The notes under the pieces: generated by a model | Database searches by the model: none | Seen by the model: the letters and a program-made list of their open reading frames with translations, nothing else | Told to the model about the DNA's origin: nothing | Made by a program: the position numbers and the translations under genes | Source: Verrucomicrobia bacterium CG1_02_43_26 | Lineage (GTDB): Bacteria; Verrucomicrobiota; Verrucomicrobiia; Opitutales; CG1-02-43-26 | DNA: 64,000 nucleotides | Reading direction: 5' to 3' | Assembly (NCBI GenBank): GCA_001872735.1 | Contig: MNWT01000005.1 | Span: 205,312-269,311 of the forward strand | In this document: positions 4,306 to 56,787 of the stretch, piece after piece | Layout: the number at the start of each line of letters is the position of its first letter | Position numbering within the stretch: the stretch's first letter is position 1

Positions 4306-4346
4306 GTCCCCTCAATTCATAAATTAACACAAACCTAAAGATAATT

Positions 4347-5073: not shown

Positions 5074-5097
5074 ATAAAAAAAATAAAGCGAAAAACA

Positions 5098-5127: not shown

Positions 5128-5168
5128 TTGGCTCGTTTCATAAACAATAAACCTAACGATAATATATT

Positions 5169-5861: not shown

Positions 5862-5916
5862 TTGTTAGTTGTTTTAAGCTAATTTACAACCCGCTTCATT
5901 TGAAGCGGGTTTTTTT
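5862..5916 (+). repeat. 55-nt 3'-UTR/terminator block, copy 2
   Basis: Base-for-base identical to 5019-5073 by direct reading. Confidence 0.95.
5888..5916 (+). terminator. Rho-independent terminator after OMP paralog 3 (identical copy of 5045-5073)
   Basis: Same stem-loop plus T7 run. It is part of a 55-nt block identical to 5019-5073. Confidence 0.85.
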
Positions 5917-6057
5917 GTGCCTGTTTCGCTATCATATTTAATAACGTATAGGAGCTAAGGCAATGTTGAGTTGACAAGCTCTTGAAAAAACACCTGTATA
6001 GATGGTAGGATTAAATCCCTAAACCATTTCCTCAAAACCTCAGAACCGTTTATCAGC

Positions 6058-6711: not shown

Positions 6712-6735
6712 ACCAAGTTTTAGCCTATTTACCTT

Positions 6736-7449: not shown

Positions 7450-7598
7450 GCGGGAAAAAACAAAAAAATCATTTTCACAGAAATAACGTTTAAAAAATTA
7501 GAAAATCCGTTTGACATCTTTGAAATATACTTTTTAACTGACAATTAGACTATCCCCTACCAAGGGGTTTGTTAAAACCTAAAAAAAGACAAATTACT

Positions 7599-8348: not shown

Positions 8349-8442
8349 CTTTTCTAGGGAAGATTAAATAATAAGCTGGAAATCTTTACTAGTGCCAGCT
8401 AGTATAAAAAATAAGGCTCCCAAAATTCCCCACTTTCCCCAA

Positions 8443-14589: not shown

Positions 14590-14638
14590 GCAATAGAGTT
14601 TAATCTTAAGTTCGGCCTATAAGCAAGCCACATATTTT

Positions 14639-17646: not shown

Positions 17647-17707
17647 CTTGCCAAACCCTTGTATATTTGATATAAATCTTAACCAAACATAATTTTTTAT
17701 TCATATA

Positions 17708-19048: not shown

Positions 19049-19065
19049 ATTCATACACCACTACC

Positions 19066-20181
19066 ATGAAAAAATCATCTATTATAATCGTCACTTTATT
19101 ACTCGTACTTGGCATAGCTTATTACGCATTTAACTCGGCCACGCCTACCGCTAAAGTAGCTGCTGCCAAAATGGGCTCAGCTGTCAATGCCGTTCCCGGA
19201 AACGTTAAAGTTCTTGCTGCTATGGAAGCAGTCGTCAAAACACAAACTGCCGGCGATATCCAAGAGCTTCTCGCACCAAAAAACACGGGCTCGATTGAGG
19301 TCAAAAGCAATGATATCGTCGCTAAACTCGATACCTCCGAGCTCGACCGCGAAATCGAACATTTACAGCTACGCTACGAGGCTGCTCTAAAACGCCAAGA
19401 AATTGGCTCCCCTTACGAAGCTGAAAAAAGAAGCCTTGAGCAGGATATGCCGCGCGTAGAAACTTTATTCAAACATGGCCAACTTCCTGAAGCTGAATTC
19501 AATAAAAGAAAGCAAGACCTTGAACGCGTCACCCGTGTCTATGAAAATGATGACCTAAATCGCACTCTTGAAGTCGAGTTGCTCAAAAATGAACTCAATC
19601 GCCGCCTCTCGCAACGTGAAAAAATGATCGTGCGCTCTCCTATTGATGGGCTTTTGACGGAAAATTACTTCCTTCCAGGCGCTCACGTCTATGGAGGAGA
19701 ATCGCTCGCTAAGGTTATTTCAAAGGATAATATGATCGAGGTCAGCATCAACGAAGAGGACTTTCCTGGAATCAGCATCGGCCAAACCGTTTCGATCAAT
19801 TTTCTAGGCCACGGCAATAAACTAGTCTCCGGAAAGGTCACTTCATTACTGGCTACTGCAAATGCAGACACCAAGCGGCGGTCTGTCTTTGTTCAATTAA
19901 ATAGTGCCGAAGATCTGGCTCCCGGCATGACCGGACAGGCAAGCATCACTAAGGCAACCCATGATAACGTTGTCATCGTGCCCAGAAGCGCTCTCACAGG
20001 CAACTTTGTCTACGTAATTAATAAGGGCAAAGTAGAGCTACGTAAGATTGTTCCAGGGTTCATTGGTTTTGATAAAGTGGAAATCAAAGAAGGCCTTAAA
20101 TCGGGCGAAGTGGTTATCGTGGAGGACATTTTTAACTTCAGAAATGGCCAACGCGTCAAAACCCAAAAGATTTCAGGCTAA
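19066..20181 (+). CDS. HlyD/MacA-type periplasmic adaptor (membrane fusion protein)
   Basis: N-terminal TM anchor, a lipoyl/barrel-sandwich motif (IVRSPIDGLL), a coiled-coil hairpin and a C-terminal beta-barrel. Confidence 0.85.
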   Translation: MKKSSIIIVTLLLVLGIAYYAFNSATPTAKVAAAKMGSAVNAVPGNVKVLAAMEAVVKTQTAGDIQELLAPKNTGSIEVKSNDIVAKLDTSELDREIEHLQLRYEAALKRQEIGSPYEAEKRSLEQDMPRVETLFKHGQLPEAEFNKRKQDLERVTRVYENDDLNRTLEVELLKNELNRRLSQREKMIVRSPIDGLLTENYFLPGAHVYGGESLAKVISKDNMIEVSINEEDFPGISIGQTVSINFLGHGNKLVSGKVTSLLATANADTKRRSVFVQLNSAEDLAPGMTGQASITKATHDNVVIVPRSALTGNFVYVINKGKVELRKIVPGFIGFDKVEIKEGLKSGEVVIVEDIFNFRNGQRVKTQKISG

Positions 20182-20183
20182 GG

Positions 20184-21431
20184 ATGAAGACTAATTTATA
20201 CATCGCCTGGAGATTTATCACTTCAAAAAAACGCTCCATGATTCTCAGTCTCCTGGGGGTCGTATTCGGCGTTGGCTTTTTTATCGTAACACAGGCGCAA
20301 ACTTCCGGTTTTGAAAACTTTTTCATCAAAACAATCCTAAGTACTAACGGCGCTATCCGTATTGCCGAGCATTTCCAGTCTACCATTCAAAGTATCGCAA
20401 GTAATCCCGATGATCAGGATAATTTTCGAGTACCGGTAAACGAGGGCAAACAGTACATATATGGCATAGAGTATCCTCATATGCTAAAAGAGGAATTAAC
20501 AAATTACTCAGAAATTTCAGGCATTTCGGAAATCCTGGAGGGGAATGCTGATGCTAAAAGCGGCTTCCGCAATCAACCCGCTAAACTGATGGGTATCCGT
20601 CTGGAAGACCATGCAACTGTTTCCGACTTACCTCGTCAGGTCATTTTAGGAGATATCGCCGACTACGCTTCAGACAATAATAGTGTCCTCCTAGGCTCTC
20701 GCCTCGCAAAACGCCTCAATCTCACGGTAAACGATTACGTTTACCTCAATACCCACGGCCAAGAAAAAGCATACCGCGTCTCCGGCATCGTTGAAACGGG
20801 CATCTCAGATATCGATAAAGTTCGCGTCTACATGCACCTCTCAGAATCCCGTTCTTTATTAAAACAACCCTTTGGCGGTTCCATTTTTCAAATCAGTTTA
20901 TTTGATCCCAGCAAAGCTCCGCAAATTGCCGCACATATCGAATCCAGCTACCAACACCATGCCGCTAGCTGGCAAGAACGCGAGCAGGTCTGGCTAGACG
21001 TTTTCAAAGCCTTACGCGTCTCCGCAGGAATAACCGTGTTTACAATTATTCTTATCTCCGGTCTGGGCATCTTTAATACCTTGGTCATGATCGTTATGGA
21101 AAAGACCAAAGAGATCGCTATCCTCCGTTCCATGGGGTATACCAGAAAAGACATTTCCAGCATCTTCCTACTCCAGGGAGGGATCGTCCTCGTGGCTGGA
21201 ACTGTTCTAGGTTGGATCTTTGCAGCATTCGCAACCTACGGCATTTCAAAAATCCCGCTTCGCATTCGAGGCATATTTTCCACAGACAGCTTTGTTGTCC
21301 ACTGGAGCCTCTCCCATTATATCATGGCCAGTGTGCTTGCGCTCATTGTTGTCATCACTGCCAGCTACATACCGGCTCGTAGAGCAGCAAAACTAGAACC
21401 AGGCGACATCGTCAGAGGAACCAGCGCATGA
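20184..21431 (+). CDS. FtsX-like ABC transporter permease (MacB/LolC/DevC family)
   Basis: N-terminal YIAWRFITSKKRS followed by a TM helix, a large periplasmic domain, and a C-terminal FtsX 3-TM bundle (EIAILRSMGYTRKDI). Confidence 0.88.
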   Translation: MKTNLYIAWRFITSKKRSMILSLLGVVFGVGFFIVTQAQTSGFENFFIKTILSTNGAIRIAEHFQSTIQSIASNPDDQDNFRVPVNEGKQYIYGIEYPHMLKEELTNYSEISGISEILEGNADAKSGFRNQPAKLMGIRLEDHATVSDLPRQVILGDIADYASDNNSVLLGSRLAKRLNLTVNDYVYLNTHGQEKAYRVSGIVETGISDIDKVRVYMHLSESRSLLKQPFGGSIFQISLFDPSKAPQIAAHIESSYQHHAASWQEREQVWLDVFKALRVSAGITVFTIILISGLGIFNTLVMIVMEKTKEIAILRSMGYTRKDISSIFLLQGGIVLVAGTVLGWIFAAFATYGISKIPLRIRGIFSTDSFVVHWSLSHYIMASVLALIVVITASYIPARRAAKLEPGDIVRGTSA

Positions 21432-22123
21432 AAAAAGATCCTTCCAACTATACTATTTTACAAGCCAACAATATTCACCGCACGCTTGGCTCTGGTGAAA
21501 ACGCAAACCATATTCTAAGAGGAGTATCCATCTCTCTCGATTCCTCCAACGTCTACTCAATCGTTGGCCCTTCTGGTTGCGGTAAAAGTACTCTCCTCTA
21601 CCTCCTAGGCTTGTTAGACAAGCCTAATAGCGGCAACATTTTCTTAAACGGTCAAGAAATGCCCCTTGACCAAGATGAGCTCAAAACTAAAGCCAGAAAC
21701 GAAAACATCGGCTTTGTCTTCCAATTTCACTTCCTTTTACCCGAATTTACCGCTTTGGAAAATGTTCTCTTTCCGATGAAAAAACTTGGCAAGCTTTCCC
21801 ATACGGAAATGCTTGATCACGCCAATGATCTCCTCACCGAAGTAGGTCTGGGACAAAAAGCCCACCGTTTGGCAACCCAGCTTTCAGGGGGAGAGCAACA
21901 ACGAGTCGCCATCGCCCGCGCTTTAGCCAATTCTCCCAGGCTCATCTTAGCAGACGAACCCACGGGAAACCTCGATGCTAAAAACTCTAACCTCGCGTTC
22001 GATCTGTTATATCGGCTTGCTCACGAGCGAGATCAAGCCATCCTCATCGTCACCCACAATCCGGAAATCGCCAATGCGTGTGACCATACACTTCCAATGC
22101 AAGATGGTCAGTTTGTGCGGTAA
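21428..22123 (+). CDS. ABC transporter ATP-binding protein (MacB/LolD/DevA type)
   Basis: Walker [10 protein letters not shown], signature LSGGEQQR and Walker [13 protein letters not shown]. The ATGA overlap with the permease gene suggests coupling. Confidence 0.93.
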
Positions 22124-23908: not shown

Positions 23909-25648
23909 TCACACAAGGTTTTCTTGAAGCATAAGATTCGTATTGCCGTTGCCCCCATTATTAGGTGTCGTTACTTGAGAGTTCGATTCTTGCATCATTT
24001 TCCGTAAGGCCTCTTGAAGGCTTGTGCTTTGGGTATTAGCTAACATTTGTTCTAAATCTTCAAGCCTTTCGTTGCGTTGTCTACGCTGAGGAAGCACCCA
24101 GCGTTTACGAACACACCAAACAATGACATCAATGGGAGCCCCTATAATCATTCCTATAACAGCCAGAATTACGCCTCCACCTAAGCTTTCTAGAGACTCC
24201 ACAAAAGCTTTTGCGGTCGCATCCGTAATATTACTATTAATTGTTGTAAATAAAGCCTTTATAACTGATCCCAAAACATATGTGCCAAGTAAAAACCCAC
24301 ACAAACCTCCTATTGCCGTAAATTTCCAGCCACTATTCCAAAGCCACTTAATAGCTCGAGTAACGAGCTCAGTTGGACTTGAAGGGGCGCTTGTGTTAGC
24401 CGTGTTATTATTTGCATTCTCAACATTCCCACCTTCTTGATTGGTTCCGGTTTCATTTTGCCCTCCACCCAGAACCTCGTCTATACTGGTACCGAAGTCA
24501 GACGTAAACCATCCACCAGCTCCATTGGTCTCTAATTTTCGGGATAGGCGTTTATTTTTCTTAATCAAATCAGCAATCAACGTCAACATCTCCTCACGCT
24601 CTTTTTCGTGTGGATCAACCTCTTCCTCTTCCCTAGGACTCTGAACTTTTTTTAATTCTTCAGAAACCCTTTTCTCCATTTTGTTTATAATCTCATGATT
24701 ACATTCCATCTGGCTTTTTGTTTTATTGCCACGTTGCTTCTTAAGATCTTCTTTTACTTCCTCAGTTGCACCTGTTAAAAACTCCACTAATTTTGTCTTC
24801 AAAAACTTGTCCACTTGATCTTCATCTAGAAGAACTTTTTTTTCATACTCCTCCCTTTCATCATTCTGATTTTCAATATCGCTCACTTCTATCGCCTTCT
24901 CATTACCTACCTCTGTCTTCTCCCTCTTGGTTGACAACCTCAAGATCTTTTCCTTTGTACGGCTTTCTAACTCAAGATCTTTAGTCTTTCGCATCTCTCT
25001 TGATTTCTTCAAGCTTCTTGCCTGCTTTACGAAATTATCTATCAATCTTTTTTGATTTTCTTCCAATTCCTTTTCTTTCGGTTTCTCCTCAATAATTATT
25101 TCCTCCTTTTTGATGGTATCGATAATTTTTTCTTCAACAATCTCTTCGTTAACGGATATGTTCTCTTCTTTCTTTTCTTCTTCAAGGTTGATCAATCTTT
25201 TTTCCTCTAGAATAGAGTCTTTGCGCTCCACTAACAAGTTTTCGTGATCATTCCCCCTGCCGTCAGGGGTATTTTTTCCTGAGCTTATTTTCTCCTCCTC
25301 TTCCACTATTTTCTTAGATACTTGGTTTACGACTTGCCCCAGAAGCTCCCACATATTTCGTTTAGATTCTTTCTCCTCTAAGCGTTCATTGCTTTCCTCA
25401 ACCTCCTCCGTCTTTACCTCTTTTATATCTAATAAATTTTCCTGGTTAGATCTAATATCAATAACGATCTCATTTATATTGTTATTTTTATCAAATTTCT
25501 GCTCTTTGATCTTGGGTGTATTAGGATCGTCTTTAACAATCGTCACGCCACTCTCGTTCTGCTTTAAATTTTCCTTTTTACTATTTTTCGTAGGAGTGTT
25601 TACGGGTGAATTCTTATTACTGCCAGTAGATTTCTTAAATATATTCAT
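23909..25648 (-). CDS. Lys/Glu-rich low-complexity protein with a C-terminal double-TM hairpin (hypothetical)
   Basis: Long uninterrupted ORF of about 580 aa. The first about 400 aa are E/K/N/I-rich and look like coiled coil. Then come a G/N/T-rich linker and two TM helices (FTAIGGLCGFLLGTYVLGSVI and GGVILAVIGMIIGAPIDVIVWCV). ATG at 25648 is preferred over the TTG at 25678. Confidence 0.7.
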   Translation of the reverse strand: MNIFKKSTGSNKNSPVNTPTKNSKKENLKQNESGVTIVKDDPNTPKIKEQKFDKNNNINEIVIDIRSNQENLLDIKEVKTEEVEESNERLEEKESKRNMWELLGQVVNQVSKKIVEEEEKISSGKNTPDGRGNDHENLLVERKDSILEEKRLINLEEEKKEENISVNEEIVEEKIIDTIKKEEIIIEEKPKEKELEENQKRLIDNFVKQARSLKKSREMRKTKDLELESRTKEKILRLSTKREKTEVGNEKAIEVSDIENQNDEREEYEKKVLLDEDQVDKFLKTKLVEFLTGATEEVKEDLKKQRGNKTKSQMECNHEIINKMEKRVSEELKKVQSPREEEEVDPHEKEREEMLTLIADLIKKNKRLSRKLETNGAGGWFTSDFGTSIDEVLGGGQNETGTNQEGGNVENANNNTANTSAPSSPTELVTRAIKWLWNSGWKFTAIGGLCGFLLGTYVLGSVIKALFTTINSNITDATAKAFVESLESLGGGVILAVIGMIIGAPIDVIVWCVRKRWVLPQRRQRNERLEDLEQMLANTQSTSLQEALRKMMQESNSQVTTPNNGGNGNTNLMLQENLV

Positions 25649-25940
25649 AAATCCGGGGTATTTTTGGGGTTCAATCAATCTTCAGAATCGAAGCTGATTC
25701 ATTTGGGGTACAAGACGTTATAAATAAATAATTTTTCTTAAACTAGCAAACGTTTCTTGAAATTCATGAGTTCACTCAAATAATAATCCGTATCATTTTT
25801 TGGTTCTAAAATGCGTATCTGTTTTTTGGATACTTTCTCCATTGATGCAAAACATCAACTATCATAAGCGCACGTAAACAGGGTTTACAATTAAAGCAAA
25901 AGTCATCTCAAAGACCCTCCATACACCCAAAAATCCGTAA

Positions 25941-27704: not shown

Positions 27705-28697
27705 ATGAACAGAGGATGGTTTATGAATACACAACTGAGCAGGCTAAACTCTATGCCTATCCTTCGCAGAAGAGAAAGCATAGAAAAAACGATTGAAGAA
27801 AAAAAGGAAACCGTTTTTGAGGAAATCAAGAATGAAAAAAAAGAAACGCTGGATATTCCACTTTTGGATTTATCTTCCCTTAATAAAAAGCTTAATAAAA
27901 CTGGGCTCAAGGAAGGTGAATACCAAATCGTTATCTTAGATGAGCAATTAGAGGATCGCAAGGTGAGCAAAGAAGACAATCTTCTTGAACTGAAACGAGA
28001 TATCAAGAAATTGGTAACCAAAAGCAAGAGCGATTCGGCTTTAAAACGCAGATCCCTTCAAATTGAAAACAAAGAGCAACAAATAGTGAACAGGCTCTCT
28101 TTATCGCCAACGTCCATACGCATGCAGCTTAGTAATGGTAATGAAATCATCACTAAAGAAGTCATCTCCCACAATCAACCAATTATCATCAACATACTCA
28201 ATGAACATTCGTGCTCTTCAGGTAAATCCAGCAGAAGGGGATCAACAGATAGTAGCAGTAGTCGACCATCAATCGATTTTGATGAGATAAAAAGCATAAC
28301 AGATGGGGACGGCATAAACCTGCTCAGCAAAGGACCATCGGTTGTCGCAAGCTCGCTCAAGAACATTGCCGGATTCATGCCAAACTACGGCATCTTTATG
28401 GTTTCAGGGGGAACGCTTTGTTTCATCGTTGGATTGGGCGTGGGCGCTGCTGTCGGTGTCGCTGCAGAAGGTGTTGGCGTTGTACCCGGCATGGCAATTG
28501 GAGGCGCTAGCGGCCTCATTCTTGGTATTACAGGAGGCCTGGCGATCGATGTTGGAATTACGGTCACCAAAAAAATCATTAAACATGTAAAAAAACAACA
28601 GGCACTTAAACAACAAACCCAAAACAGGATTAAGAAGCAACCTTCTCTGGTAGAAAAAACGATTAGTCGAATACTCCCCAAAAAGGCTACTATTTAG
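27705..28697 (+). CDS. Lys/Glu/Ser-rich protein with a C-terminal glycine-zipper double-TM hairpin (hypothetical)
   Basis: 330-aa ORF. It has an E/K-rich N-terminus, a Ser-rich stretch (SSGKSSRRGSTDSSSSRPS), a bilobed hydrophobic segment (GIFMVSGGTLCFIVGLGVGAAVGVAAEGVGVVPGMAIGGASGLILGITGGLAIDVGITV) and a basic tail. Confidence 0.7.
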   Translation: MNRGWFMNTQLSRLNSMPILRRRESIEKTIEEKKETVFEEIKNEKKETLDIPLLDLSSLNKKLNKTGLKEGEYQIVILDEQLEDRKVSKEDNLLELKRDIKKLVTKSKSDSALKRRSLQIENKEQQIVNRLSLSPTSIRMQLSNGNEIITKEVISHNQPIIINILNEHSCSSGKSSRRGSTDSSSSRPSIDFDEIKSITDGDGINLLSKGPSVVASSLKNIAGFMPNYGIFMVSGGTLCFIVGLGVGAAVGVAAEGVGVVPGMAIGGASGLILGITGGLAIDVGITVTKKIIKHVKKQQALKQQTQNRIKKQPSLVEKTISRILPKKATI

Positions 28698-28862: not shown

Positions 28863-30173
28863 ATGTCTGATATTAAAACTGGCAGTAAAAACACTTCCCC
28901 CAATATATCACCGATTCTTAAAAAGGAAGAACTTGAGAATCTAGAGGGTATCTTTGATGAAAAAAAGGTAGAGTCGCAGAATTCCAGCACCAAGAAAACA
29001 CCTCGAAAACAGGGTGACCTGAACCTAAGCAATGAAAATCTTTTCAGCAAAGAAGTTTTCAATATCAGCTCTACTCTTTTAGAAAAAAATGATGAATTAA
29101 CCAAAAAGCTCGATGAAAAAACTAAAGAAGAGCTTCTCAAGAAAGAGACAAAGATCCTCAAGCTAAAAGACGAACTCAAAAAGAAGGACGACGAACTCAA
29201 AAGGAAGGACGACGAGGTCACTAAAGTAAAAGAGGAGCTTAATAACTCTCAATTAAGCGTAGAAGACGATGAAGAGGTGGGCGAACTCGCAAAAAATTAT
29301 ATTAAAAGAAAAGAAACCAAACTCGAAAACCTCACAAAGAATGGTGTACACGAATTTATAAAGAGTAAAATCAATACTTTGGGTAATAATCTTTTAAAGA
29401 GTCCACAGGAATTATTCGATGGGTTCGTAAAGGCTGCGGAACAGATCGTCAGTAAAGATCCTACGGATCTTACAAAAGTAGCAACTGAAATTGCAAAATC
29501 GCCTCTACTTACACCTGTTTTAGCAAAACTGGATCTTAATCCGGCAAAATTTGCTGAATTCTTTCTAGACAAGGTACAAAAGGACTTGAAGCAAGTTGAT
29601 GACGATTTCAAAGATGAAAAAAAGCCTGACTTTTCCAAAAAAGAACAAGTTGTTGATAAACTGATTGAAGTTTTTGCAGACAAAATGCTAGACACACTTT
29701 TAGGGTATGACGTAACGGAACGTGATCCGAGCTACAAAGCCGTAGTCAACATTCTGAAATTCAGCAAAGACTATGTGGGAAGCATCTTCTTGCCTTCATT
29801 GACCAATGAGACGACTAAGGATCTCTCTGAGCGTGCTGTAAAGGACCTTACGAGCTATCTTGGCCCTGTAGCACCGCTTGCGAGAATGGTCACTAGCTTC
29901 TTTAATACGGTTGCAGGCCCGTTCTTGCCTAAAACAAGCTGGTCCGGCTTACTAACGGGGGTGACCACAACGGCCGGTATCTATCTGGCCTACAGCAAGC
30001 CTTCCTTCCTGTTAGATACTATAACAACCTACTCTAAAAAGTATTCCGAAAACGTGGTCTATGGCGCCTTTGGCATTGTAGGAGCGGGATTGGGGTTCAC
30101 TGGGGAATGGTCTATTTACCTGGTTAGCCTGATGCTTGGCAAGCTCTTTGGTAATAAGGAAAAAATGGCTTAA
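28863..30173 (+). CDS. Lys/Glu-rich coiled-coil protein with C-terminal TM segments (hypothetical)
   Basis: 436-aa ORF preceded by a strong AAGGAGAT Shine-Dalgarno sequence. It has a K/E/D-rich N-terminus with a DELKKKD/DELKRKD repeat. The C-terminus has hydrophobic segments GLLTGVTTTAGIYLAY and VVYGAFGIVGAGLGFTGEWSIYLVSLMLGKLF. Confidence 0.7.
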   Translation: MSDIKTGSKNTSPNISPILKKEELENLEGIFDEKKVESQNSSTKKTPRKQGDLNLSNENLFSKEVFNISSTLLEKNDELTKKLDEKTKEELLKKETKILKLKDELKKKDDELKRKDDEVTKVKEELNNSQLSVEDDEEVGELAKNYIKRKETKLENLTKNGVHEFIKSKINTLGNNLLKSPQELFDGFVKAAEQIVSKDPTDLTKVATEIAKSPLLTPVLAKLDLNPAKFAEFFLDKVQKDLKQVDDDFKDEKKPDFSKKEQVVDKLIEVFADKMLDTLLGYDVTERDPSYKAVVNILKFSKDYVGSIFLPSLTNETTKDLSERAVKDLTSYLGPVAPLARMVTSFFNTVAGPFLPKTSWSGLLTGVTTTAGIYLAYSKPSFLLDTITTYSKKYSENVVYGAFGIVGAGLGFTGEWSIYLVSLMLGKLFGNKEKMA

Positions 30174-35327: not shown

Positions 35328-35356
35328 TTGGTTTTCGCATAAAACCGTGGTATATT
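35328..35356 (+). promoter_or_regulatory. Putative sigma70-type promoter of the pilin gene
   Basis: TTGGTT (35328-35333), a 17 nt spacer, then TATATT (35351-35356). This leaves an 80-nt leader containing (ACCCAA)x3 and no Shine-Dalgarno sequence. Confidence 0.35.
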
Positions 35357-35440: not shown

Positions 35441-35788
35441 ATGGATAATTCCAAATCAAAAAAGGGTTTTACCCTCGTTGAAATCATGATTGTCGTGGTC
35501 ATCATCGGTCTATTAGCCGCCATGGCCATTCCAGCATTCCAAAAAGTACGTCAAGAATCTCGTGAAAAAGCTATCACGAATAACTTGCGACAAGTGGCTT
35601 CAGCTGGTGCTCAATTCATATTGGACACTGGTGCCTCGCAAGTAGCTTATACTGCATTGACCCCAACATACTTCAATACGATCGCAGCTGTTGCTGGTGA
35701 ATCGTACACAGGTATCTCGGTTGATGAAGACGGTGGAACACTGACTGTAACCACAACCGGTGGTCAGTCTGTTTCATTTACGTACTAA
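35441..35788 (+). CDS. Prepilin-type N-terminal cleavage/methylation domain protein (type IV pilin or pseudopilin-like)
   Basis: MDNSKSKKG|FTLVEIMIVVVIIGLLAAMAIPAF is a class III signal with Gly-1, Phe+1 and Glu+5. It has a short 115-aa body and a Thr/Gly-rich C-terminus (GGTLTVTTTGGQSVSFTY). Confidence 0.9.
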   Translation: MDNSKSKKGFTLVEIMIVVVIIGLLAAMAIPAFQKVRQESREKAITNNLRQVASAGAQFILDTGASQVAYTALTPTYFNTIAAVAGESYTGISVDEDGGTLTVTTTGGQSVSFTY

Positions 35789-35807
35789 TCTAATTGACGA
35801 CTCTTGT

Positions 35808-35843
35808 AGACCGCTTGCTATAAAAGCGAGCGGTCTTTTTTTT
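35808..35843 (+). terminator. Rho-independent terminator/attenuator after the pilin gene
   Basis: AGACCGCTTGC-TATAAA-AGCGAGCGGTCT stem followed by a T8 run, only 11 nt before the next ATG. Confidence 0.8.
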
Positions 35844-35854
35844 GTTTAAAAATC

Positions 35855-37708
35855 ATGAAAAACTGGAAACCGGTTCTTGCGTTTGCTGTTATTGCAATTA
35901 TATCGCTCGTTGTAGGGCAATGGGCGTTTTCCCCACTTCAAGCCGTTACCTTCGTGAAATATGGGGGTTACTGGATCATGCTCGTCACGGCAGGTCTATT
36001 TTTCTATTTTCTCTATAAATGCCTCCTGCCCTACCTAAAAGATAAGCACTTTCGAACAAAAGCATTCTGGACTGAACCCAAGAACCTCCTCGTCTGCCTA
36101 TTGATTATATTTTGCTTTTTGTACATTCGCCTTCAAGAGAAAGTTGAATACAAAATAGTGATGGATGAACCCGTACTGGTGGCCACATCTATGTCCATGC
36201 ACCAAGATCGCATAGTCCAAGTGCCCAATAGAGCCCATACGATCGCCGGCACCTTTTATATATTGGACGGCTTTGTAGACAAACGCCCCTCTGCCTATCC
36301 CTTTTTTCTCTCCGTTATCCATGATTTTAGCGGTTTTCGCCCTGAAAATGCCTTTTATTTCAACCTCTTTCTCACCGGCTTGTTTCTCTTTTTGACTTAT
36401 CTAGTGGGCTTCAAACTGGCTTCGCGAACAGGAGGTGTGTTTGCCGTCCTATTATTTACCTTTTTACCGCTCTTTGTGCGTGCCTCTAATGGAGCTGGAT
36501 TTGAGGTTTTGAATATAGTCATGATCCTCGGGACTATGCTGATCGGGATGGAATACCTTAAGCGACCGACAAAGACTAACCTCAATGCGCTTTGCTTAAC
36601 CACGGTTATTTTAGCGCAAGTGCGCTATGAAAGCGTCATGTACATTGCGCCGGCTGGCTTGCTCATTCTCTATGCCTGGTGGCGAGAAAAGAAGATTACG
36701 ACCTCCTGGGGATTGATGATCACGCCTATTTTGCTCATCCCCTATCTATGGACGCACAAAGTGTTTGATCTCAACGATGGTCACTGGCAATTATGGGATC
36801 GTTCTTCAGCAACAAGCCCCTTTGGCTTTCAATACGCCTATCAAAACATCGGCCACGCCCTCAATTTCTTCCTTGATGCCGGCCTTGAAATGACAAATTC
36901 TTTGCCGATTGCCATTCTTGCCCTAGCATTTATCCCCTTCTTTATTTTGGTGGTCTACAAGCTCCTGAAGGCCAAAAAGCGCTTCCCGATTCCGCTGATC
37001 GTTCTGTGCTTTTTCTGCCTAGGCTTCGTGATGAATACACTTCTGATCATCTTCTATTTTTTTGGTCAACTGGACGATCCGATCATCCACCGCCTGGCAT
37101 TCCCAATGCTGATCCCTATGGTGTTTATCCCCATCTGGATGATTTACTCCTACACGACAAACCCCGCCTATCGGCAAACGTTTTCCTGGTTTATTTGTCT
37201 AGGGATACTTGTTTTCTGCGTGCCAAAAATTTCTGCTAAACACTATTCTCAGAATCAACTGCCCGTGGATCGCGTCAACTGGATGATCGATATCATCAAA
37301 AACTCGGAAATGGCCGGAAAACACTATTTTGTGCTCTCGGAGACCCCCTTTATATGGATCATGCACCGCGTAGACGCCATGAGCACCGCGTATGCGATAA
37401 AACGCAAGGATCGGGTATTGCATTATTTAAAACAAAAAGGGAACCCACCGGTATATGTTCAGCAGAGTCGGTTGTTAAATGCTCCGACCGGCACATACGT
37501 CTATGACGGCGGCTTCCTGAAGGCTAAAAAGAACTATGACCTCGATAACGATTTTGTACTAGAACCTTACAAAGATGAGCACATCTGGCCATTGAGGCAA
37601 ATTAGGTTCTATAAATTAGTCGATGTTAAAAATACTCCCCCTATGGATCTGCCTCAGCCCACGAACAATAAGGAGTATATGCGGCAGTGGATTGAAACCT
37701 TACCTTAA
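35855..37708 (+). CDS. GT-C fold integral-membrane glycosyltransferase (ArnT/PMT/TfpW-like, polyprenyl-phosphate-sugar dependent)
   Basis: 617 aa with at least 11 predicted TM helices and a soluble C-terminal domain of about 150 aa. An acidic DE motif (IVMDEPVLV, 36164-36169) lies in the first extracytoplasmic loop, as in GT-C enzymes. Confidence 0.7.
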   Translation: MKNWKPVLAFAVIAIISLVVGQWAFSPLQAVTFVKYGGYWIMLVTAGLFFYFLYKCLLPYLKDKHFRTKAFWTEPKNLLVCLLIIFCFLYIRLQEKVEYKIVMDEPVLVATSMSMHQDRIVQVPNRAHTIAGTFYILDGFVDKRPSAYPFFLSVIHDFSGFRPENAFYFNLFLTGLFLFLTYLVGFKLASRTGGVFAVLLFTFLPLFVRASNGAGFEVLNIVMILGTMLIGMEYLKRPTKTNLNALCLTTVILAQVRYESVMYIAPAGLLILYAWWREKKITTSWGLMITPILLIPYLWTHKVFDLNDGHWQLWDRSSATSPFGFQYAYQNIGHALNFFLDAGLEMTNSLPIAILALAFIPFFILVVYKLLKAKKRFPIPLIVLCFFCLGFVMNTLLIIFYFFGQLDDPIIHRLAFPMLIPMVFIPIWMIYSYTTNPAYRQTFSWFICLGILVFCVPKISAKHYSQNQLPVDRVNWMIDIIKNSEMAGKHYFVLSETPFIWIMHRVDAMSTAYAIKRKDRVLHYLKQKGNPPVYVQQSRLLNAPTGTYVYDGGFLKAKKNYDLDNDFVLEPYKDEHIWPLRQIRFYKLVDVKNTPPMDLPQPTNNKEYMRQWIETLP

Positions 37709-37739
37709 GGTGATTTTATTAGCGAGAATCGGATAGAAT

Positions 37740-37771
37740 AAAAAAGGCCCCACATAGTGTGAGGCCTTTTT
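37740..37771. terminator. Bidirectional terminator between convergent genes
   Basis: An A6 run, then the GGCCCCACA-TAG-TGTGAGGCC hairpin with one mismatch, then a T5 run. Confidence 0.7.
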
Positions 37772-37810
37772 GTTGCGAAAAAACAAGTTGATCGCGACTG
37801 TTTATTCAAA

Positions 37811-38206
37811 TTAGAAAAGCTTTCTCTTAAAAGCTGGGTTAGTATTATTCTGTTGGTTGGCTAGATGGGCTTGCCTATTTTCCAGATAAAGGCATTTTGA
37901 ATCTAGGTGCCGGGGTGTCGTTTCTTTGACCCGAGAAATACCGGTTAAATCAGGCTTTGGTGGAGCAAATTTAACAACTGGTTTTTTAACAGTTATCTTT
38001 TTTGTTATTTTCGAAGGTTTAGAGATCTTATTCTTTTGCTCTGTTTCATTAAGGTTTATCTTCAAGTTCTTTTTAAACAACTGGGAAATTTCCTCCTCAG
38101 TAATGTCCTTGATCTTGTCGCCCTTGTTTTCAGATTTATTATCTTTTTTATTCTGGATATTTTGGGAAGGAACATATCCACCACCAATGTTAATTTTATT
38201 ATTCAT
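37811..38206 (-). CDS. Lys/Asn-rich basic hypothetical protein
   Basis: 131-aa ORF in an AT-rich stretch, with no TM helix and no recognised motif. An alternative-frame ORF on the opposite strand makes the coding status less certain. Confidence 0.45.
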   Translation of the reverse strand: MNNKINIGGGYVPSQNIQNKKDNKSENKGDKIKDITEEEISQLFKKNLKINLNETEQKNKISKPSKITKKITVKKPVVKFAPPKPDLTGISRVKETTPRHLDSKCLYLENRQAHLANQQNNTNPAFKRKLF

Positions 38207-38458
38207 ATTTTTATAATAAGTTTACTTTAATTGACTCAATCGATATAAATTTTATACCAATTGAGGTAAATTGCCATAAAATACCTAAAAGAGCAATAGG
38301 AAAAATAAATAATTAACACTAAATTGCTAAATACTTCAAATTAACGGGGTTTTAAATGAAAATAATACAGATTTGGCTAATCTAAAAAACGTTATCCATG
38401 AATTTAATAGCCATCGATTAAACGTTTCTAGCGTAAGTCCTTTTGTAGCTGCAAAAAA

Positions 38459-39148
38459 TCAGCGAAAGAGGTTGTACTTTATGATCGCATAAATGGCACG
38501 GAAACCGTCTTTCCAATTGATTTTCTTGCCCTCTTGGTAGGTTCGCCCGGAATAACCGATACCGACTTCAAAGATGCGGCAGCCGCTTTTGGCTAATTTT
38601 GCGGTGATTTCAGGCTCAAAGCCAAAGCGGTTTTCCTCGAGCTTAATCTTCTGGATGATTTCACGGCGCACCATCTTGTAACACGTCTCCATGTCTGTTA
38701 GATTGATGTTGGTGAGCATGTTTGAGAAAAAGGTCAACAGCTTGTTACCGACCATGTGCCAAAAGAAGACGACCCGGTGGGGTTCTGCGCCGATAAAACG
38801 CGAACCAAAAACGGCATCTGCCTTACCCTCTTTTATCGGTTGGAGTAGTTTTGGGTACTCTTGAGGATCATATTCTAAATCCGCGTCTTGAACAATAATC
38901 ACATCGCCTTTTGCCTGAGCGATACCGGTTCGTAGCGCGGCTCCTTTGCCCTGATTAGTTTCATGGTAAAATTTGCAACAAAGCGGCATATCGATTTCAT
39001 TTTCTAAGATCTCACGCGTACCATCCGTGGAACCATCATCGACAACGATAATTTCCCGTAACGCCACAGGTGCGTTTGCTACGCGTTCCAAGAGCTGTTT
39101 AATCGTATCTTTTTCGTTATAGACGGGGACAACTACAGAAATATTCAT
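38459..39148 (-). CDS. GT2 polyprenol-phosphate glycosyltransferase (Dpm1/GtrB/ArnC-like)
   Basis: [31 protein letters not shown] (DXD) and [12 protein letters not shown] at 39148 is preferred over the track start at 39208. Confidence 0.88.
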
Positions 39149-39271: not shown

Positions 39272-39958
39272 ATGCTTTTTCGGCACAAGCTATTTATCCC
39301 CGGCCTGACTGCCGCCTTAGTCATCACTGCCGGCATTATTCTGTATTATTTTTTTGGCGCTGATTTAGATCCAGTGCGCGCCATTGAACAATTTTCCCGG
39401 CACTTATCGGCATTAGCAAAACTGCACCCTGCTTACTTAATCCTGGCGATCACAATTGCTCCCGCAGTGGGCATACCCGTTAGCCCCCTGTACATCCTTT
39501 CCGGCATTGCCTATGGTACGCAAGCAGGCATCATTTATTCCACAATTGGAGTAGCCCTTAATATTGCGCTTACCTATTGGGTTGCTAGACGATTCTTAAA
39601 CAAATTCATCCAAAGGCTTTTGACTCGCTTTAATTACAAAGTGCCCGAAGTGCCCAAAAAGCATCACTGGAAGATGGTTGTGGCCGTAAGAATCATGCCC
39701 GGGGTACCCCTTCCGGTACAAAATTACATACTTGGGCTAACAGCAATCCCCTTTTGGACGTATTTTACTTTTTCCTGGATCATACAATTCCTCTGGGTAA
39801 TTGGTTATGTAGTAACCGCAGGATCTATCTTCAAAGGGCATATGAAACTAGCTTTATTTGGCATCGCATTTATGATTGGAGTTGCTGTAATCTTACAACT
39901 CGTACGAAAGCGCTATGTCAAACTTAAGAAAGCCCAAATTGAAGACGATGGAGAGTGA
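39272..39958 (+). CDS. TVP38/TMEM64 (DedA-related) family membrane protein
   Basis: Five or six TM helices and the (R)xxPxxPxxxxNY-like motif RIMPGVPLPVQNYILG typical of this family. Confidence 0.75.
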   Translation: MLFRHKLFIPGLTAALVITAGIILYYFFGADLDPVRAIEQFSRHLSALAKLHPAYLILAITIAPAVGIPVSPLYILSGIAYGTQAGIIYSTIGVALNIALTYWVARRFLNKFIQRLLTRFNYKVPEVPKKHHWKMVVAVRIMPGVPLPVQNYILGLTAIPFWTYFTFSWIIQFLWVIGYVVTAGSIFKGHMKLALFGIAFMIGVAVILQLVRKRYVKLKKAQIEDDGE

Positions 39959-53187: not shown

Positions 53188-53604
53188 TTAGCCGAATAGC
53201 CAACAGAACCCCACGGCGTAAACAAAGCCTAAGAGCAACCCCGCCGCCACCTCCAGTGGCTTGTGCCCAATAGATTCTCTTAACGGCTTGTCCTCTCCCC
53301 CCAGTTTCCCAAAAGTCAGTTTATTCAGCACACTGGCCTGTTTACCTATATTCTTACGTAAACTCAACGCATCCATCACAACAATAAACAGCATCGTAGC
53401 TGCGATGCCCGCCATCGGCGTATTAAAGCCATCTTTTAGCCCTATGTAGAAAAAGATCGATCCGACAATTGCGCTATGGTTACTGGGCATCCCCCCATAG
53501 CCAATATATTTCCAAGCGAGCTCCTTGTATTTAATGGTATTAATCGAAAATTTTACTATGCCTGTCAAAAACCAGGCCACTAAGGGGATTAACCAATAAT
53601 ACAT
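53188..53604 (-). CDS. Divergent PAP2-family membrane phosphatase (DUF212-type)
   Basis: GGMPSNHSA motif characteristic of the divergent PAP2 family and four TM helices. The stop codon abuts the 3' end of tRNA-Arg. Confidence 0.75.
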   Translation of the reverse strand: MYYWLIPLVAWFLTGIVKFSINTIKYKELAWKYIGYGGMPSNHSAIVGSIFFYIGLKDGFNTPMAGIAATMLFIVVMDALSLRKNIGKQASVLNKLTFGKLGGEDKPLRESIGHKPLEVAAGLLLGFVYAVGFCWLFG

Positions 53605-53616
53605 AATCGCTTTCTC

Positions 53617-54489
53617 CTAATATAACGTTGTTGATAAATTAAACCACTCGATCACAAAATAAGACACTAACCACAGGGCAATCGCCACCTGCATTTTCCA
53701 ATCTTTCATTAAGATCACTTCCGGCTCCTCTCCTTTTTCTAACACCATTACCAGTCGCTTGTAATGGGCAATCGCAAAAAATACAATAGGTATTGTGATG
53801 ATCAACAGGCTACTTTTATCCGATTCTATCGTAAACAGGGCATAGGATATAATGGCCATGTTAGCCGTTCCATTTAACAGAGATCTTAAGAAGGGCATGG
53901 AATAATAATCCAACACAGGCCGTTGATCGAATTTCTTTGTATTGCACAGCTCTGAATACCGTTTTGCGAATACCAAAAACAGCGCCAGGAAGAAAGTACA
54001 CACTAATATCCAAGCTGTCGGGAATTGGCCGATAACGTATATACCGGCTAACAAACGAAAGATAAAACCAAAGGCAATAGACATGCAGTCTACAATCGCC
54101 CAGTGTTTTAGCCAAAAAGTGTATAGAATATTATTGAGCGCATACAAAAGCACAGCCCAAAACACAACCGATCCCAAATAACACGCTCCCCATATAGAGA
54201 GCCCAAACAAAACAATGCCTAATCCTAATGCGTTAGGGACAGGAACCGCCCCTCGCGCAATCGGCCTAAATTGCTTTTTAGGGTGCGCTCTATCTTTTTC
54301 ACGGTCAATAATATCGTTTAACACATAGAGCGATGACGATAGCCCGCAGAACACAATGAACAAGAAGGTGCTCAACACCCAAGCGTTTAGATTCTCTAGA
54401 CCTCTAATACCAAAGAACAAACCGGCATAGCAAAATAAATTCTTGCTCCACTGCTGTGGCCTGAGGAGGATTATGTAATCTTTTATCAT
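53617..54489 (-). CDS. UbiA-superfamily prenyltransferase, polyprenyl-phosphate phosphoribosyltransferase-like (DPPR-synthase-like)
   Basis: LNDIIDREKDRAHPKKQFRPIARG (NDxxDxxxD followed by HPxKxxRPIAxG) and 8-9 TM helices. The motif resembles decaprenyl-phosphate phosphoribosyltransferase as I recall it. Confidence 0.7.
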   Translation of the reverse strand: MIKDYIILLRPQQWSKNLFCYAGLFFGIRGLENLNAWVLSTFLFIVFCGLSSSLYVLNDIIDREKDRAHPKKQFRPIARGAVPVPNALGLGIVLFGLSIWGACYLGSVVFWAVLLYALNNILYTFWLKHWAIVDCMSIAFGFIFRLLAGIYVIGQFPTAWILVCTFFLALFLVFAKRYSELCNTKKFDQRPVLDYYSMPFLRSLLNGTANMAIISYALFTIESDKSSLLIITIPIVFFAIAHYKRLVMVLEKGEEPEVILMKDWKMQVAIALWLVSYFVIEWFNLSTTLY

Positions 54490-54495
54490 GCTTCG

Positions 54496-55524
54496 TTAAG
54501 ATATTTTCTTTAATAGCCCCAAAATTTTCTGCTTAACCACGCTTCTATGCGGGCTCTTGCCTGTCGTCTCAAACACTTCTTGGGGGTGTTCTAAAAACCA
54601 GTCATAGCTTTCTCGCAACATCCGCTCATTGGAATAGGCTGGCTTCCAACCCATGTACAACAAGGGTTTTACGTCAAAATAAAAGGGCTTATGATAGGTT
54701 AGGTAATGCCAGGGTGCTAATGGAGACATATTAATCACATCAAGCAGCTTAAGCGCCCCCATAGCCAGGCAAGTTGGAATGCTCACGATGGTGGAAGTGG
54801 ATTTCGCGTACTGGATCAAGTTTGCCAGATCTCCTCGCAGTGAGCCGTATTCTGCCGCCCCCACGTTATAAATCCCTGGTTGTTCTTTGGATAGCGCCAA
54901 CATGTAAAAATCCATTAAATCATGCGCGTGCACAAATTGGAAACCGCCTGTTCCCGGGCCTATGATATAGATTTTTCTATTATCGCGTATCCAATCAAAC
55001 AGGATCTCGAAAATGCCCAGTCTGCCTTCCCCTAAAATGGTGCGCGGGCGAATTACGATTAAGGGCAGGTTATTTTTCTCACAAATTTCTCGCACGGCAA
55101 GCTCTCCGGCCAATTTGCCTTTGCCGTAAATTTCCACGGGGCGGTAAGGGGTGTCATTCGTCACGGGGCAAACGTTGGGGGCACCAAAAATCGCACTGGA
55201 ACTCGTATGTATGAAGGCCTTTACCTTACTTTCCACAGCAACCTCGGCGGCTATACGTGTTCCGTTAACATTTACATCCCAAAATTTGTCTCCAGATTTG
55301 GTCAAGGGAACGAGGGCCACGGTGTGGTGAACGATGTCTATCCCCTCCATCGCTTTTTTTACGCCCGCTCTATTTCTTATATCGCATTCAATGTACTCGA
55401 TTTCAGCAGGTCGATCTTTGTCTTCCCAGACATCCAAGACGCGTACCTGCTCGCCCTTTTCAAGCAAACGCTTAGCAATCAAATTACCTAAAAAACCGGA
55501 ACCGCCTGTTACCAAATGTCGCAT
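54496..55524 (-). CDS. NAD-dependent epimerase/dehydratase (extended SDR)
   Basis: VTGGSGFLG Rossmann motif and catalytic YGKGKLAGE (YxxxK). ATG at 55524 is preferred. Confidence 0.85.
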   Translation of the reverse strand: MRHLVTGGSGFLGNLIAKRLLEKGEQVRVLDVWEDKDRPAEIEYIECDIRNRAGVKKAMEGIDIVHHTVALVPLTKSGDKFWDVNVNGTRIAAEVAVESKVKAFIHTSSSAIFGAPNVCPVTNDTPYRPVEIYGKGKLAGELAVREICEKNNLPLIVIRPRTILGEGRLGIFEILFDWIRDNRKIYIIGPGTGGFQFVHAHDLMDFYMLALSKEQPGIYNVGAAEYGSLRGDLANLIQYAKSTSTIVSIPTCLAMGALKLLDVINMSPLAPWHYLTYHKPFYFDVKPLLYMGWKPAYSNERMLRESYDWFLEHPQEVFETTGKSPHRSVVKQKILGLLKKIS

Positions 55525-55528
55525 TATA

Positions 55529-56603
55529 TTACTGGAAGGTAGAAGCAAATTGCCCGCTATCTTGCATCCATTTCAAGCTACGGCGCATCCCTTCTTTCAA
55601 ATCAACCTTAGGTGCGTAGCCGAGTTCCTTTTTGGCTTTTTCGACAGAGCAGGCTATATTTTTGTTCATTTCTGATAACACATGTATCTTTTGATGGTAA
55701 AGGCCAACTGTTTGCAGTAACCGATCAACCATCAGCGCCACTTCGCTGGCTACCCCAGGCAATCGCATGCGTTTGTGCGCGCAGGTCTGCCCAAACTCTT
55801 TCTCCAAAAGGTTTTCAACGGTATCGACAATCTCGTTCATCGTATAAGGTCGCTCATCTGCGATCCAATAAATCTGACCGTTCGCTTTTTCACTCAAAGC
55901 AGCCAAGATAAGGCCTTGGCAGAGGTTTTCAATATAAGACATCGAGCGTAGGTTGTCGCCTGATCCCACAATGGGTGCCTTACCATCGCATATCATTTTA
56001 AAAAACAAGGACTGCCTTTGAGGTTGATAGGGGCCATAAAACCAGGTTCCTCTTACAATAACCGTCTCTAGCTTTCCTGCTTTCTGAACCCCAATGATGT
56101 ACTCTTCCATCTCCCGCTTTGCGCGACCGTAATGCATATACGGACGATACGGTGCGTTTTCATCAAATAAACACGTTTTATTCGAATTGCAGCCTACAGG
56201 GGAATTAGATGACATTGTCACCACGCGTTTCAATTTACACTTTTCCGCCGCCTTGTGGATATTTTTTGTGCATTCCACGTTCACGGTATAGAGATCTTGT
56301 ATGCGCTTTGGGTGAATTAACCCCGCCAGATGGAATAAAATGCTCCCCTCTGCGCCAGAGCAAAAAAGCTCACAATCATCCTTATCCCTTAAGTCGCCAT
56401 AAAAATACTCCACCTGAGGGAAATTTCTCCTTCAAGGCATCTACCTTTAAACCACGCTCAATAAAGGCACGTATCTTCAAATCTTTATTGAGCCCGCTTA
56501 AGGACTCCACTTCTGGGATTCCGTTAACGAGGGCATTCAGCAAACCATGCCCCAGCCAGCCAGACGCTCCCGTCACTAACACTAAATTATTGGGGAAATT
56601 CAT
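55529..56603 (-). pseudogene. NAD-dependent epimerase/dehydratase interrupted by a single-nucleotide frameshift
   Basis: ORF 56382-56603 carries the Rossmann N-terminus (LVTGASGWLGHG). ORF 55529-56413 carries the remainder, including YGRAKREME (YxxxK). The frames overlap at 56384-56431. Removing one base from the A3T3C3 run (56418-56426) restores ...KEKFPQVEYFYGDLRD... Confidence 0.75.
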
Positions 56604-56787
56604 TTAAAGATGTAATTTTTTATATTGGGGATAACAAATTCAAAGCGCCAATCTAGCTTTCTCCCGCTCTAAAGGCAACTTTTTTCATCCTACACATTAG
56701 CTCTTCGAGCACAACGAGACCAGAGCTGAGAGTTGTCCGCCAAAGATTCAACAACGTAATCGCTCCCCAAATAGCGATAAAACGTTT

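Follow-up and report, generated by a model that had tools for sequence, protein, structure and literature searches.

A pilin and glycosyltransferase gene pair conserved across Opitutia as a candidate pilin O-glycosylation module in a verrucomicrobial genome

In a 64,000-nucleotide stretch of the genome of Verrucomicrobia bacterium CG1_02_43_26 (contig MNWT01000005.1, positions 205,312 to 269,311; the whole stretch is called the window, and coordinates count from its first letter), the gene for a small type IV prepilin is followed on the same strand by the gene for a polytopic membrane protein that we assign to the glycosyltransferases of the C type (GT-C). An earlier reading of the DNA letters (the original prediction) had proposed that the two genes form a pilin O-glycosylation module. 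All the elements that it named, namely the prepilin, a hairpin with a T8 run, the GT-C protein, an acidic DE motif within it and a nearby family 2 glycosyltransferase (GT2), were recovered in our analysis of open reading frames (ORFs), Pfam matches, folding and AlphaFold/Foldseek models. The core of the locus comprises the following features:

35441..35788, plus strand: prepilin of 115 amino acids (ORF, N_methyl match, PilA-type PDB matches, AlphaFold model)
35808..35844, plus strand: intrinsic terminator with a 12-bp stem, a 5-nt loop and T8, between pilin and GT-C
35855..37708, plus strand: predicted GT-C(A)-fold integral membrane glycosyltransferase of 617 amino acids (AlphaFold model, Foldseek, hydropathy, family profile)
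37741..37771, no strand assigned: 14-bp hairpin bordered by an A5 run and a T5 run, in the gap where the GT-C gene and a minus-strand ORF converge

The product of the first gene opens with MDNSKSKKG|FTLVEIMIVVVIIGLLAAMAIPAF, where the bar marks the cleavage site, and its C-terminal end reads GGTLTVTTTGGQSVSFTY. It carries every element of a class III signal: a short basic leader of nine residues, a G|F cleavage site (G9|F10, in the context KKG|FTLVEIM), a Glu at mature position 5 and a hydrophobic helix. The protein matches the Pfam N_methyl family (PF07963, 4.6e-9) and NCBIfam TIGR02532 (2.5e-8), and in the NCBIfam scan its N-terminus also matches PilA and GspG models. Full-length sequence matches in the PDB are to the type IV PilA chains 9laa, 8tum and 6xxd, whereas the match to GspG is confined to the N-terminus. 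The AlphaFold model, with a predicted local distance difference test score (pLDDT) of 82.6, consists of a helix at residues 12-63, an alpha-beta loop and a three-stranded sheet (93-95, 100-104 and 110-114), so that as modeled the protein is a minimal type IV pilin in which a long alpha-1 helix carries a small beta-sheet head. Foldseek searches with this model returned only noise (E > 3), and the sequence matches to solved pilins were used instead.

A homologue search with the pilin gave more than 7,000 relatives. Identity is 60-77% to proteins of cultured Puniceicoccales (Rubellicoccus peritrichatus, three Cerasicoccus species, Ruficoccus and Puniceicoccus vermicola) and about 50% to relatives in Opitutaceae, which marks the window as DNA of an Opitutia bacterium. 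A family alignment built from database proteins shows conserved Ser/Thr at S40, at S/T66, where the alpha-beta loop begins, and at T100, T102, S/T110 and T114. The 115-residue product is a type IV pilin of the prepilin-peptidase type and belongs to a small-pilin family that is conserved in Opitutia and often tandemly duplicated. The original prediction was right that the window holds no pilus assembly genes, in that no PilB/C/D/M-Q was found among its ORFs of at least 150 amino acids scanned with Pfam; the suggestion it drew, that the pilin may be a lone or accessory subunit, does not survive the family assignment. In a metagenomic relative (L109, 4001-5787), the orthologous pilin gene is adjoined by a prepilin peptidase gene (A24_N_bact plus Peptidase_A24) in the place of the GT-C gene. 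Pattern scans for sigma-54 and sigma-70 sites upstream of the pilin at ten loci revealed no common motif, and the window pilin is preceded only by a weak TTGGTT-17 nt-TATATT at 35328-35356.

The 66 nt that separate pilin and GT-C (35789-35854) are largely taken up by the terminator. Its stem of 12 bp, with 7 G-C pairs, spans 35808-35836 and is followed by T8; the spacer folds with -22.4 kcal/mol (z = -4.85), and none of 200 shuffled sequences was as stable. Because the T-run ends 10 nt before the ATG of the GT-C gene, the spacer has no room for a separate promoter. A hairpin with a T-run also lies 3' of 85 of 111 pilin genes in relatives. The distance from terminator to GT-C start is variable among these relatives and their start codons are uncertain, so that the tight packing is secure for the window and its close relatives, loci L001-L003, only. 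Beyond the GT-C gene, the symmetric hairpin at 37741..37771 looks like a bidirectional terminator.

Sequence comparison by itself places the 617-residue protein in no described family. Pfam makes no call (PMT_2, PF13231, E = 0.014 and 16.1 bits against a cut-off of 26.1), Wzy_C (PF04932) gives no match even at E <= 10, the NCBIfam models, those for ArnT included, give none, and PDB sequence searches with either the single sequence or a 31-sequence profile produced no meaningful match. Since Pfam gives no call, it is the predicted structure, together with homologues, that supports the GT-C assignment. The AlphaFold model, for which 30 homologues served as the alignment, has a pLDDT of 85.9 and a predicted template modeling score (pTM) of 0.89. 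All 26 Foldseek matches in the PDB at E <= 0.001 are GT-C enzymes (STT3, AglB, PglB, ArnT, AftA, AftB, ALG3/9/12 and EmbC), with TM-scores of 0.26-0.53, and the matches with weaker E-values (Pmt4, Pmt1-Pmt2, EmbA/B and AftD) are GT-C enzymes as well. As judged from the model, these matches fix the GT-C fold and not the subfamily. The profile and structure comparisons put forward in the original prediction thus bore out the fold, with PMT_2 staying below its cut-off and with neither ArnT nor Wzy_C matched; a grouping with ArnT or lipid A enzymes, which together with unrelated neighbors in relatives had been named as a result that would overturn the idea, is not seen by sequence in NCBIfam, PDB or profile searches.

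Hydropathy and the positive-inside rule place the N-terminus of the GT-C protein in the cytoplasm and the DE loop in the periplasm. The original prediction had located the DE motif in the first external loop; the loop is indeed periplasmic, and D104-E105 is invariant in the 31 family members, while the position proved to be after the third hydrophobic helix. Invariance extends to 41 columns of the family alignment, among them E95, K100, D142-K143-R144, H156-D157, E217, R257-Y258-E259, Y401, D407, R413 and P417. We infer putative catalytic roles for the acidic residues in the first periplasmic core loop, and for the basic residues a role with the donor phosphate. The last ~160 residues are predicted by the positive-inside rule to be periplasmic, and the C-terminal domain (about 457-617) is modeled as alpha/beta, with mixed strands and helices at 490-617 and no helical repeats. 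Searched against 1.84 billion representatives, the family profile retrieves only 1,706 clusters at E <= 0.001, almost all of them 580-640 amino acids long, and by these sequence criteria the protein appears to form a compact family of its own that merges with neither the ArnT nor the PMT_2 families. Sequence kinship with the PMT_2-positive second GT-C of related clusters, described below, was considered as well and could not be demonstrated (hhalign probability 9.5%, not significant).

The strongest evidence concerning function comes from gene order. GT-C relatives were taken from 80 GTDB loci, 63 of which have at least 700 nt of upstream DNA. A pilin gene lies directly upstream on the same strand in 62 of these 63, as a single copy in 22 loci, as two copies in 38 and as three in 2, and prepilin-motif ORFs number 105 within 2.2 kb upstream of GT-C, compared with no genuine one elsewhere in 1.07 Mb of flanking DNA. 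The pair is flanked by PIN/TRAM in the window, in L001-L003 (44%-identity relatives) and in Rubellicoccus, by ferrochelatase in Cerasicoccus, by an FGE-sulfatase in Puniceicoccus and by RsfS in Opitutaceae. Pilin and GT-C move as a unit through these differing flanks, across the class Opitutia. In one Opitutales lineage, two unrelated and longer N_methyl proteins precede the orthologous GT-C. Viewed from the pilin side, GT-C lies downstream in 15 of the 22 orthologous pilin loci that have enough downstream DNA, and in 0 of 12 non-orthologous ones. These 15 of 22 loci, together with one genome in which GT-C stands alone, imply that the module is accessory rather than obligatory; pilin accessory genes of Pseudomonas aeruginosa are likewise present at some pilin loci and absent at others.

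The layout of pilin followed by GT-C, on which the original prediction had relied, is therefore meaningful, being conserved across Opitutia despite changing flanks; its expectation that the adjacency would be kept in relatives is borne out from the GT-C side and only in part from the pilin side. Because the pairing is kept across the whole class, the GT-C probably glycosylates the pilus subunit. That it is a dedicated pilin-modifying enzyme, with the neighboring pilin as its acceptor, is the reading that we favor from sequence comparison, with moderate confidence. By analogy, the locus is most likely a reduced pilin O-glycosylation module that resembles pilA-tfpW of P. aeruginosa in organization without apparent homology to it. 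The synteny makes the core interpretation of the original prediction much stronger, and we consider that interpretation plausible.

Clusters in relatives extend beyond the pair. The second GT-C found in Opitutaceae is paralogous to the first (66 of 74 loci), and in clusters of the Puniceicoccales type it is of the PMT_2-positive kind, with 524-577 amino acids. Related clusters carry a GT2 of 307-323 amino acids that is 50-55% identical across lineages, and cluster layouts of at least three kinds contain GT2 genes. A methyltransferase often accompanies the cluster GT2, and amino-sugar genes are common. The methyltransferase takes the form of a ~474-residue methyltransferase-GT2 fusion after the two GT-Cs in Opitutaceae (L014:11597-13021; L031, L032, L062, L066, L071 and L081), and methyltransferase and GT2 are separate genes in Rubellicoccus and Puniceicoccus. 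A methyltransferase fused to or beside the GT2 hints that the transferred sugar is methylated in these relatives. On one Opitutaceae chromosome (OZ245769, L084), a minus-strand block just past pilin-GT-C-GT-C (15413-21899 in the coordinates of that locus) encodes two more PMT/PMT_2 proteins, a DegT aminotransferase, a 243-residue GT2 and a GFO/IDH oxidoreductase, which brings four GT-C-type genes inside 12 kb.

Downstream of the GT-C gene, the window carries three other genes:

37811..38206, minus strand: K/N-rich orphan ORF of 131 amino acids (no Pfam or NCBIfam match) in a low-GC patch
38459..39148, minus strand: GT2 catalytic domain of 229 amino acids, ATG at 39148 (PF00535, 1.4e-39; DDG and DAD motifs)
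39272..39958, plus strand: DedA/VTT-family membrane protein of 228 amino acids (PF09335, 9.9e-19), divergent from the GT2

By synteny with L001-L003, the orphan ORF occupies the slot where relatives have the second GT-C and the GT2. GC content falls to 27-34% at 37600-38450, compared with about 45% in the flanks, and the coincidence of this drop with the position of the two genes in relatives suggests deletion and replacement. The orphan ORF is not part of the module.

The 229-residue GT2 is what the original prediction had put forward as the maker of the lipid-linked donor. In type the proposal fits: PDB matches are to the Pyrococcus dolichyl-phosphate-mannose synthase (DPMS) 5mlz (7e-23 over residues 1-225), then to ArnC and GtrB; a DXD-type motif is present (DAD at 88); and the top NCBIfam matches are AglJ, ArnC, a dolichyl-P-hexose transferase and PpgS, all below cut-off. 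The protein has no transmembrane anchor, and its alignment to DPMS ends at residue 249 of 374. The part of the proposal that rested on proximity fares less well. The gene is on the minus strand, the sole orthologue seen is that of L001-L003 (68% identity), and relatives use another GT2; the case for it as donor synthase is weakened because it adjoins the cluster only in the window's own clade. It is a possible candidate donor synthase, given its resemblance to polyprenyl-phosphate sugar synthases. The pair formed by GT2 and VTT genes is also kept in L001-L003, and one may speculate that the DedA/VTT protein is a candidate flipper of the polyprenyl-phosphate-linked substrate.

A second conceivable donor source lies apart from the locus:

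53188..56620, minus strand: putative lipid-linked pentofuranose donor cassette of four genes (Pfam, NCBIfam and PDB matches), made up of the next four entries
53188-53604, minus strand: divergent PAP2 (DUF212, 9e-33)
53617-54489, minus strand: homologue of decaprenyl-/polyprenyl-phosphate phosphoribosyltransferase, UbiA family (PDB 8j8j, 2.2e-31; NF008977, 1.2e-58, below cut-off)
54496-55548, minus strand: epimerase of the short-chain dehydrogenase/reductase (SDR) family (SDR match)
55529 to about 56620, minus strand: second SDR, frameshifted (split reading frame)

The Rossmann N-terminus of the second SDR (NLVLVTGASGWLG...) lies in another frame, upstream of a 294-residue ORF, and this split gene is either a frameshifted pseudogene or the product of an assembly error. 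By analogy, the cassette is similar to the part of lipid-linked pentofuranose (Ribf/Araf/Xylf) pathways that provides the donor, the pathway that supplies TfpW among them. No homologue of the cassette was found in about 90 pilin-GT-C loci. Its closest relatives (~50% identity) are on metagenome contigs, and named homologues occur in cyanobacteria and Planctomycetota, with none in Opitutia. The three homologue contexts that were retrieved, on metagenome contigs, hold a different cassette (GMC-oxidoreductase-SDR-SDR-UbiA), and the large membrane proteins beside those homologues gave no match to the GT-C family profile. A tie between the phosphoribosyltransferase cassette and the pilin GT-C was thus rejected after three tests, all negative, and with no link found the cassette stays an idea only as a donor source.

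In the scheme that we propose, the pilin would be transcribed at a high level with most transcripts ending at the terminator, and a minority of read-through transcripts would yield a small amount of GT-C. Within the inner membrane, the GT-C would take a sugar from a polyprenyl-phosphate-linked donor at the periplasmic face and pass it on to hydroxyl groups of Ser/Thr in the pilin, while the latter is still anchored in the membrane and unassembled. As candidate acceptors we regard S66, where the alpha-beta loop begins, along with T100/T102/T104 and S110/S112 in the last two strands. For the longer pathway of relatives, we envisage that the 307-323-residue GT2 makes the lipid-linked donor and that the second GT-C extends the glycan or adds a second sugar, the pathway often being completed by a methyltransferase and amino-sugar genes. 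The window would then hold a version with one GT-C, the donor for which would be supplied by the 229-residue GT2, by the phosphoribosyltransferase cassette at a distance of 16 kb or by some other part of the genome. A far more specific proposal, that the 617-residue protein founds a new family of pilin-O-glycosylating GT-C enzymes throughout Opitutia, the first such system in bacteria of the Planctomycetes-Verrucomicrobia-Chlamydiae (PVC) group, and that it is fed here by the 53-56 kb cassette and decorates the pilin with a pentofuranose in convergence with arabinosylation by TfpW, strikes us as improbable.

Several observations weigh against a dedicated pilin-modifying role. Gene order is the only link between GT-C and pilin, and Foldseek cannot split protein-modifying from lipid- or glycan-modifying GT-C enzymes. 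The second GT-C and the 307-323-residue GT2 are absent from the window, where tblastn of 37.6-38.6 kb shows no remnants of them, and there is no flippase of a known type (GtrA, SMR or MATE) near the locus. The amino-sugar neighbors in Opitutaceae and Rubellicoccus (DegT, hexapeptide transferase and GFO/IDH) suit an envelope-glycan pathway equally well, 7 of the 22 orthologous pilin loci have other neighbors instead of GT-C, and in a single genome, L060, the GT-C has no adjacent pilin. The last two points also speak for the alternative that the GT-C modifies another envelope glycoconjugate (lipid A or lipopolysaccharide core, O-antigen or exopolysaccharide) in the manner of ArnT or Gtr, its adjacency to the pilin reflecting co-regulation or old gene order. 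Further support for this alternative comes from the structural match to ArnT (5f15, target TM-score 0.53), which ranks with the best, and from Arn-like chemistry in related clusters, which encode a DegT aminotransferase, a hexapeptide acyltransferase, an oxidoreductase and a GT2. We nevertheless hold it, the main rival of our reading, to be unlikely, if still worth serious attention: the GT-C has no sequence-level match to ArnT or to any NCBIfam or PDB GT-C, the pair persists while every flank changes, N_methyl adjacency is kept even with a different pilin family, and the packing of terminator and start codon makes GT-C expression appear tied to the pilin promoter.

Were the GT-C instead a general periplasmic protein O-glycosyltransferase, acting as PMT or PglL does, the abundant pilin would be one of many substrates. 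A weak PF13231 (PMT_2) match in about 40% of the homologues listed and the DE motif, which is like that of PMT/ArnT-type enzymes, lend this some color, and general O-glycosylation systems often take in pilins (PMC9239064). A gene order this tight and specific to one pilin family is rather what a dedicated pair would show, the model has no MIR or TPR domains that would recruit substrates, and the profile-profile comparison with genuine PMT_2 neighbors gave the 9.5% probability reported above; we consider a general enzyme distinctly improbable. Very unlikely, in our view, is a non-catalytic accessory or assembly factor of the pilin that has retained a GT-C-like fold. Pilin-adjacent accessory proteins that are not glycosyltransferases do exist (TfpX/Y/Z; PMC11841053), and the window copy has no firmly associated gene for donor synthesis, but the 41 invariant columns include the acidic pair and Lys, Arg, His and Glu residues in predicted periplasmic loops, a pattern that is expected of an active GT-C, and GT2 genes recur in the clusters. 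That pilin and GT-C are adjacent by chance is scarcely credible. N_methyl proteins are numerous in Verrucomicrobiota, and the size of the pilin family, with its more than 7,000 relatives, could make a coincidence seem easy; the synteny of 62 in 63 loci and the 105 adjacent prepilin ORFs compared with 0 in 1.07 Mb already contradict it. A dedicated pilin-modifying GT-C remains the reading that we prefer.

Glycosylation of the pilin has effects on pilus assembly, adhesion and phage resistance. To our knowledge, what has been learned of it comes almost entirely from Pseudomonadota, where two types of enzyme are known, the Wzy_C oligosaccharyltransferases and a single GT-C example, TfpW. We found no description of a pilin-GT-C system in Verrucomicrobiota or other PVC bacteria in the literature, in agreement with the original prediction. 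If our reading is true, a second and unrelated GT-C family stands beside a pilin across an entire class, which would mean that bacteria reached the same solution more than once, and some 1,700 sequence clusters, for none of which a function has been described, would become a candidate new family of glycosyltransferases. Cultured carriers exist in Rubellicoccus peritrichatus, Cerasicoccus species and Puniceicoccus vermicola. With its single GT-C and without the cluster GT2, the copy in the window amounts to a naturally minimal form that could serve to separate initiating from extending steps.

Elsewhere in the window, several other genes concern the cell surface or sugars. Six tandem, small, paralogous ORFs of 217-265 amino acids occupy 3407-8285 on the plus strand; five of the six match OMP_b-brl beta-barrel families, some also Surface_Ag_2 or Opacity, and the one at 6736-7449 has no Pfam match. 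Tandem beta-barrel arrays are typical of variable surface-antigen families. At 8392-10499 (plus strand), a PseB/PglF-like 4,6-dehydratase (Polysacc_synt_2) and a NeuB-family synthase overlap by 61 nt, which suggests synthesis of a nonulosonic acid of the pseudaminic or legionaminic type, and beyond this pair GT4 genes lie at 13453-17646. Low-complexity ORFs rich in lysine, glutamate and asparagine (K/E/N-rich) are found at 23909-25678 (minus strand), 27705-28697 and 28863-30173 (both plus strand) and 37811-38206 (minus strand, the orphan ORF listed above). The three that were scanned with Pfam, 23909-25678, 27705-28697 and 37811-38206, have no match, and the three large ones terminate in glycine-rich hydrophobic segments. 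The impression they give is of secreted or membrane proteins that are specific to the lineage, perhaps a hint of life in association with a host.

The closest known counterpart in arrangement is pilA-tfpW of P. aeruginosa, in which pilA and the GT-C gene directly after it are transcribed together and pilin O-glycosylation depends on the GT-C; TfpW is a GT-C enzyme with a TPR C-terminal domain that adds D-arabinofuranose oligomers to group IV pilin (bioRxiv 10.1101/2020.04.19.049825). As in the window, the gene for an enzyme of GT-C fold lies directly downstream of the pilin on the same strand, and donor-synthesis genes may be unlinked. The differences are considerable. The periplasmic C-terminal domain of TfpW is built of TPRs, whereas that of the window GT-C is alpha/beta; periplasmic loop 1 carries DDX in TfpW and DE in the window GT-C; and loop 4 of TfpW carries YX6PFX7P, in place of which the window GT-C has neither YX6PFX7P nor YX6PX5P and only a loose Y401...D407...R413...P417. 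The TfpW donor is made by a DPPRS/DprE1/DprE2 pathway, in contrast to the two GT-Cs and GT2 (with or without methyltransferase) of the window's relatives, and the host belongs to Pseudomonadota rather than to Verrucomicrobiota. The likeness to TfpW drawn in the original prediction therefore extends to arrangement and fold only, since the TPR domain and YX6PFX7P are lacking; judged by the domain and motifs described for TfpW (AAM52060.1), the window GT-C does not appear to belong to the TfpW family.

TfpO/PilO and PglL, the enzymes with Wzy_C, are also membrane enzymes that modify pilins, tfpO lies directly after pilA, and the periplasmic glycosylation of pilin Ser/Thr from a lipid-linked donor is what we propose here. 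They differ in transferring preassembled oligosaccharides linked to undecaprenyl pyrophosphate and in having Wzy_C, which is absent from the window GT-C; for a GT-C(A) enzyme with a GT2 partner, polyprenyl-monophosphate monosaccharides would be the expected donor. The Ogt of Synechococcus elongatus is encoded next to pilA throughout its phylum, and both pilin glycosylation and normal piliation require it, but it is a soluble cytoplasmic enzyme that uses UDP-GlcNAc and has no secretion signal (PMC9306852), and for that reason it was dropped as a GT-C/PMT_2 precedent. PMT enzymes of family GT39 share with the window protein the GT-C(A) fold and a DE motif in the catalytic loop, and their reaction is the O-glycosylation of Ser/Thr, with a polyprenyl-phosphate sugar from a DPMS-type GT2 as donor; the window GT-C differs in falling below the PMT_2 threshold and in being without MIR domains. 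Finally, the three-component systems (GtrA/GtrB/GtrV, ArnC/ArnE-F/ArnT and the pentofuranose system of Kelly et al. 2024, PMC11127046) act on O-antigen or lipid A rather than on a protein, as proposed here, and the window has neither a GtrA/SMR/MATE gene nor the cluster GT2. Their logic may nonetheless be shared: a cytoplasmic synthase charges polyprenyl phosphate with a sugar, and once this product has been flipped, a GT-C on the periplasmic side hands the sugar on, and GT2 genes of the DPMS/ArnC/GtrB type recur in the pilin-GT-C clusters.

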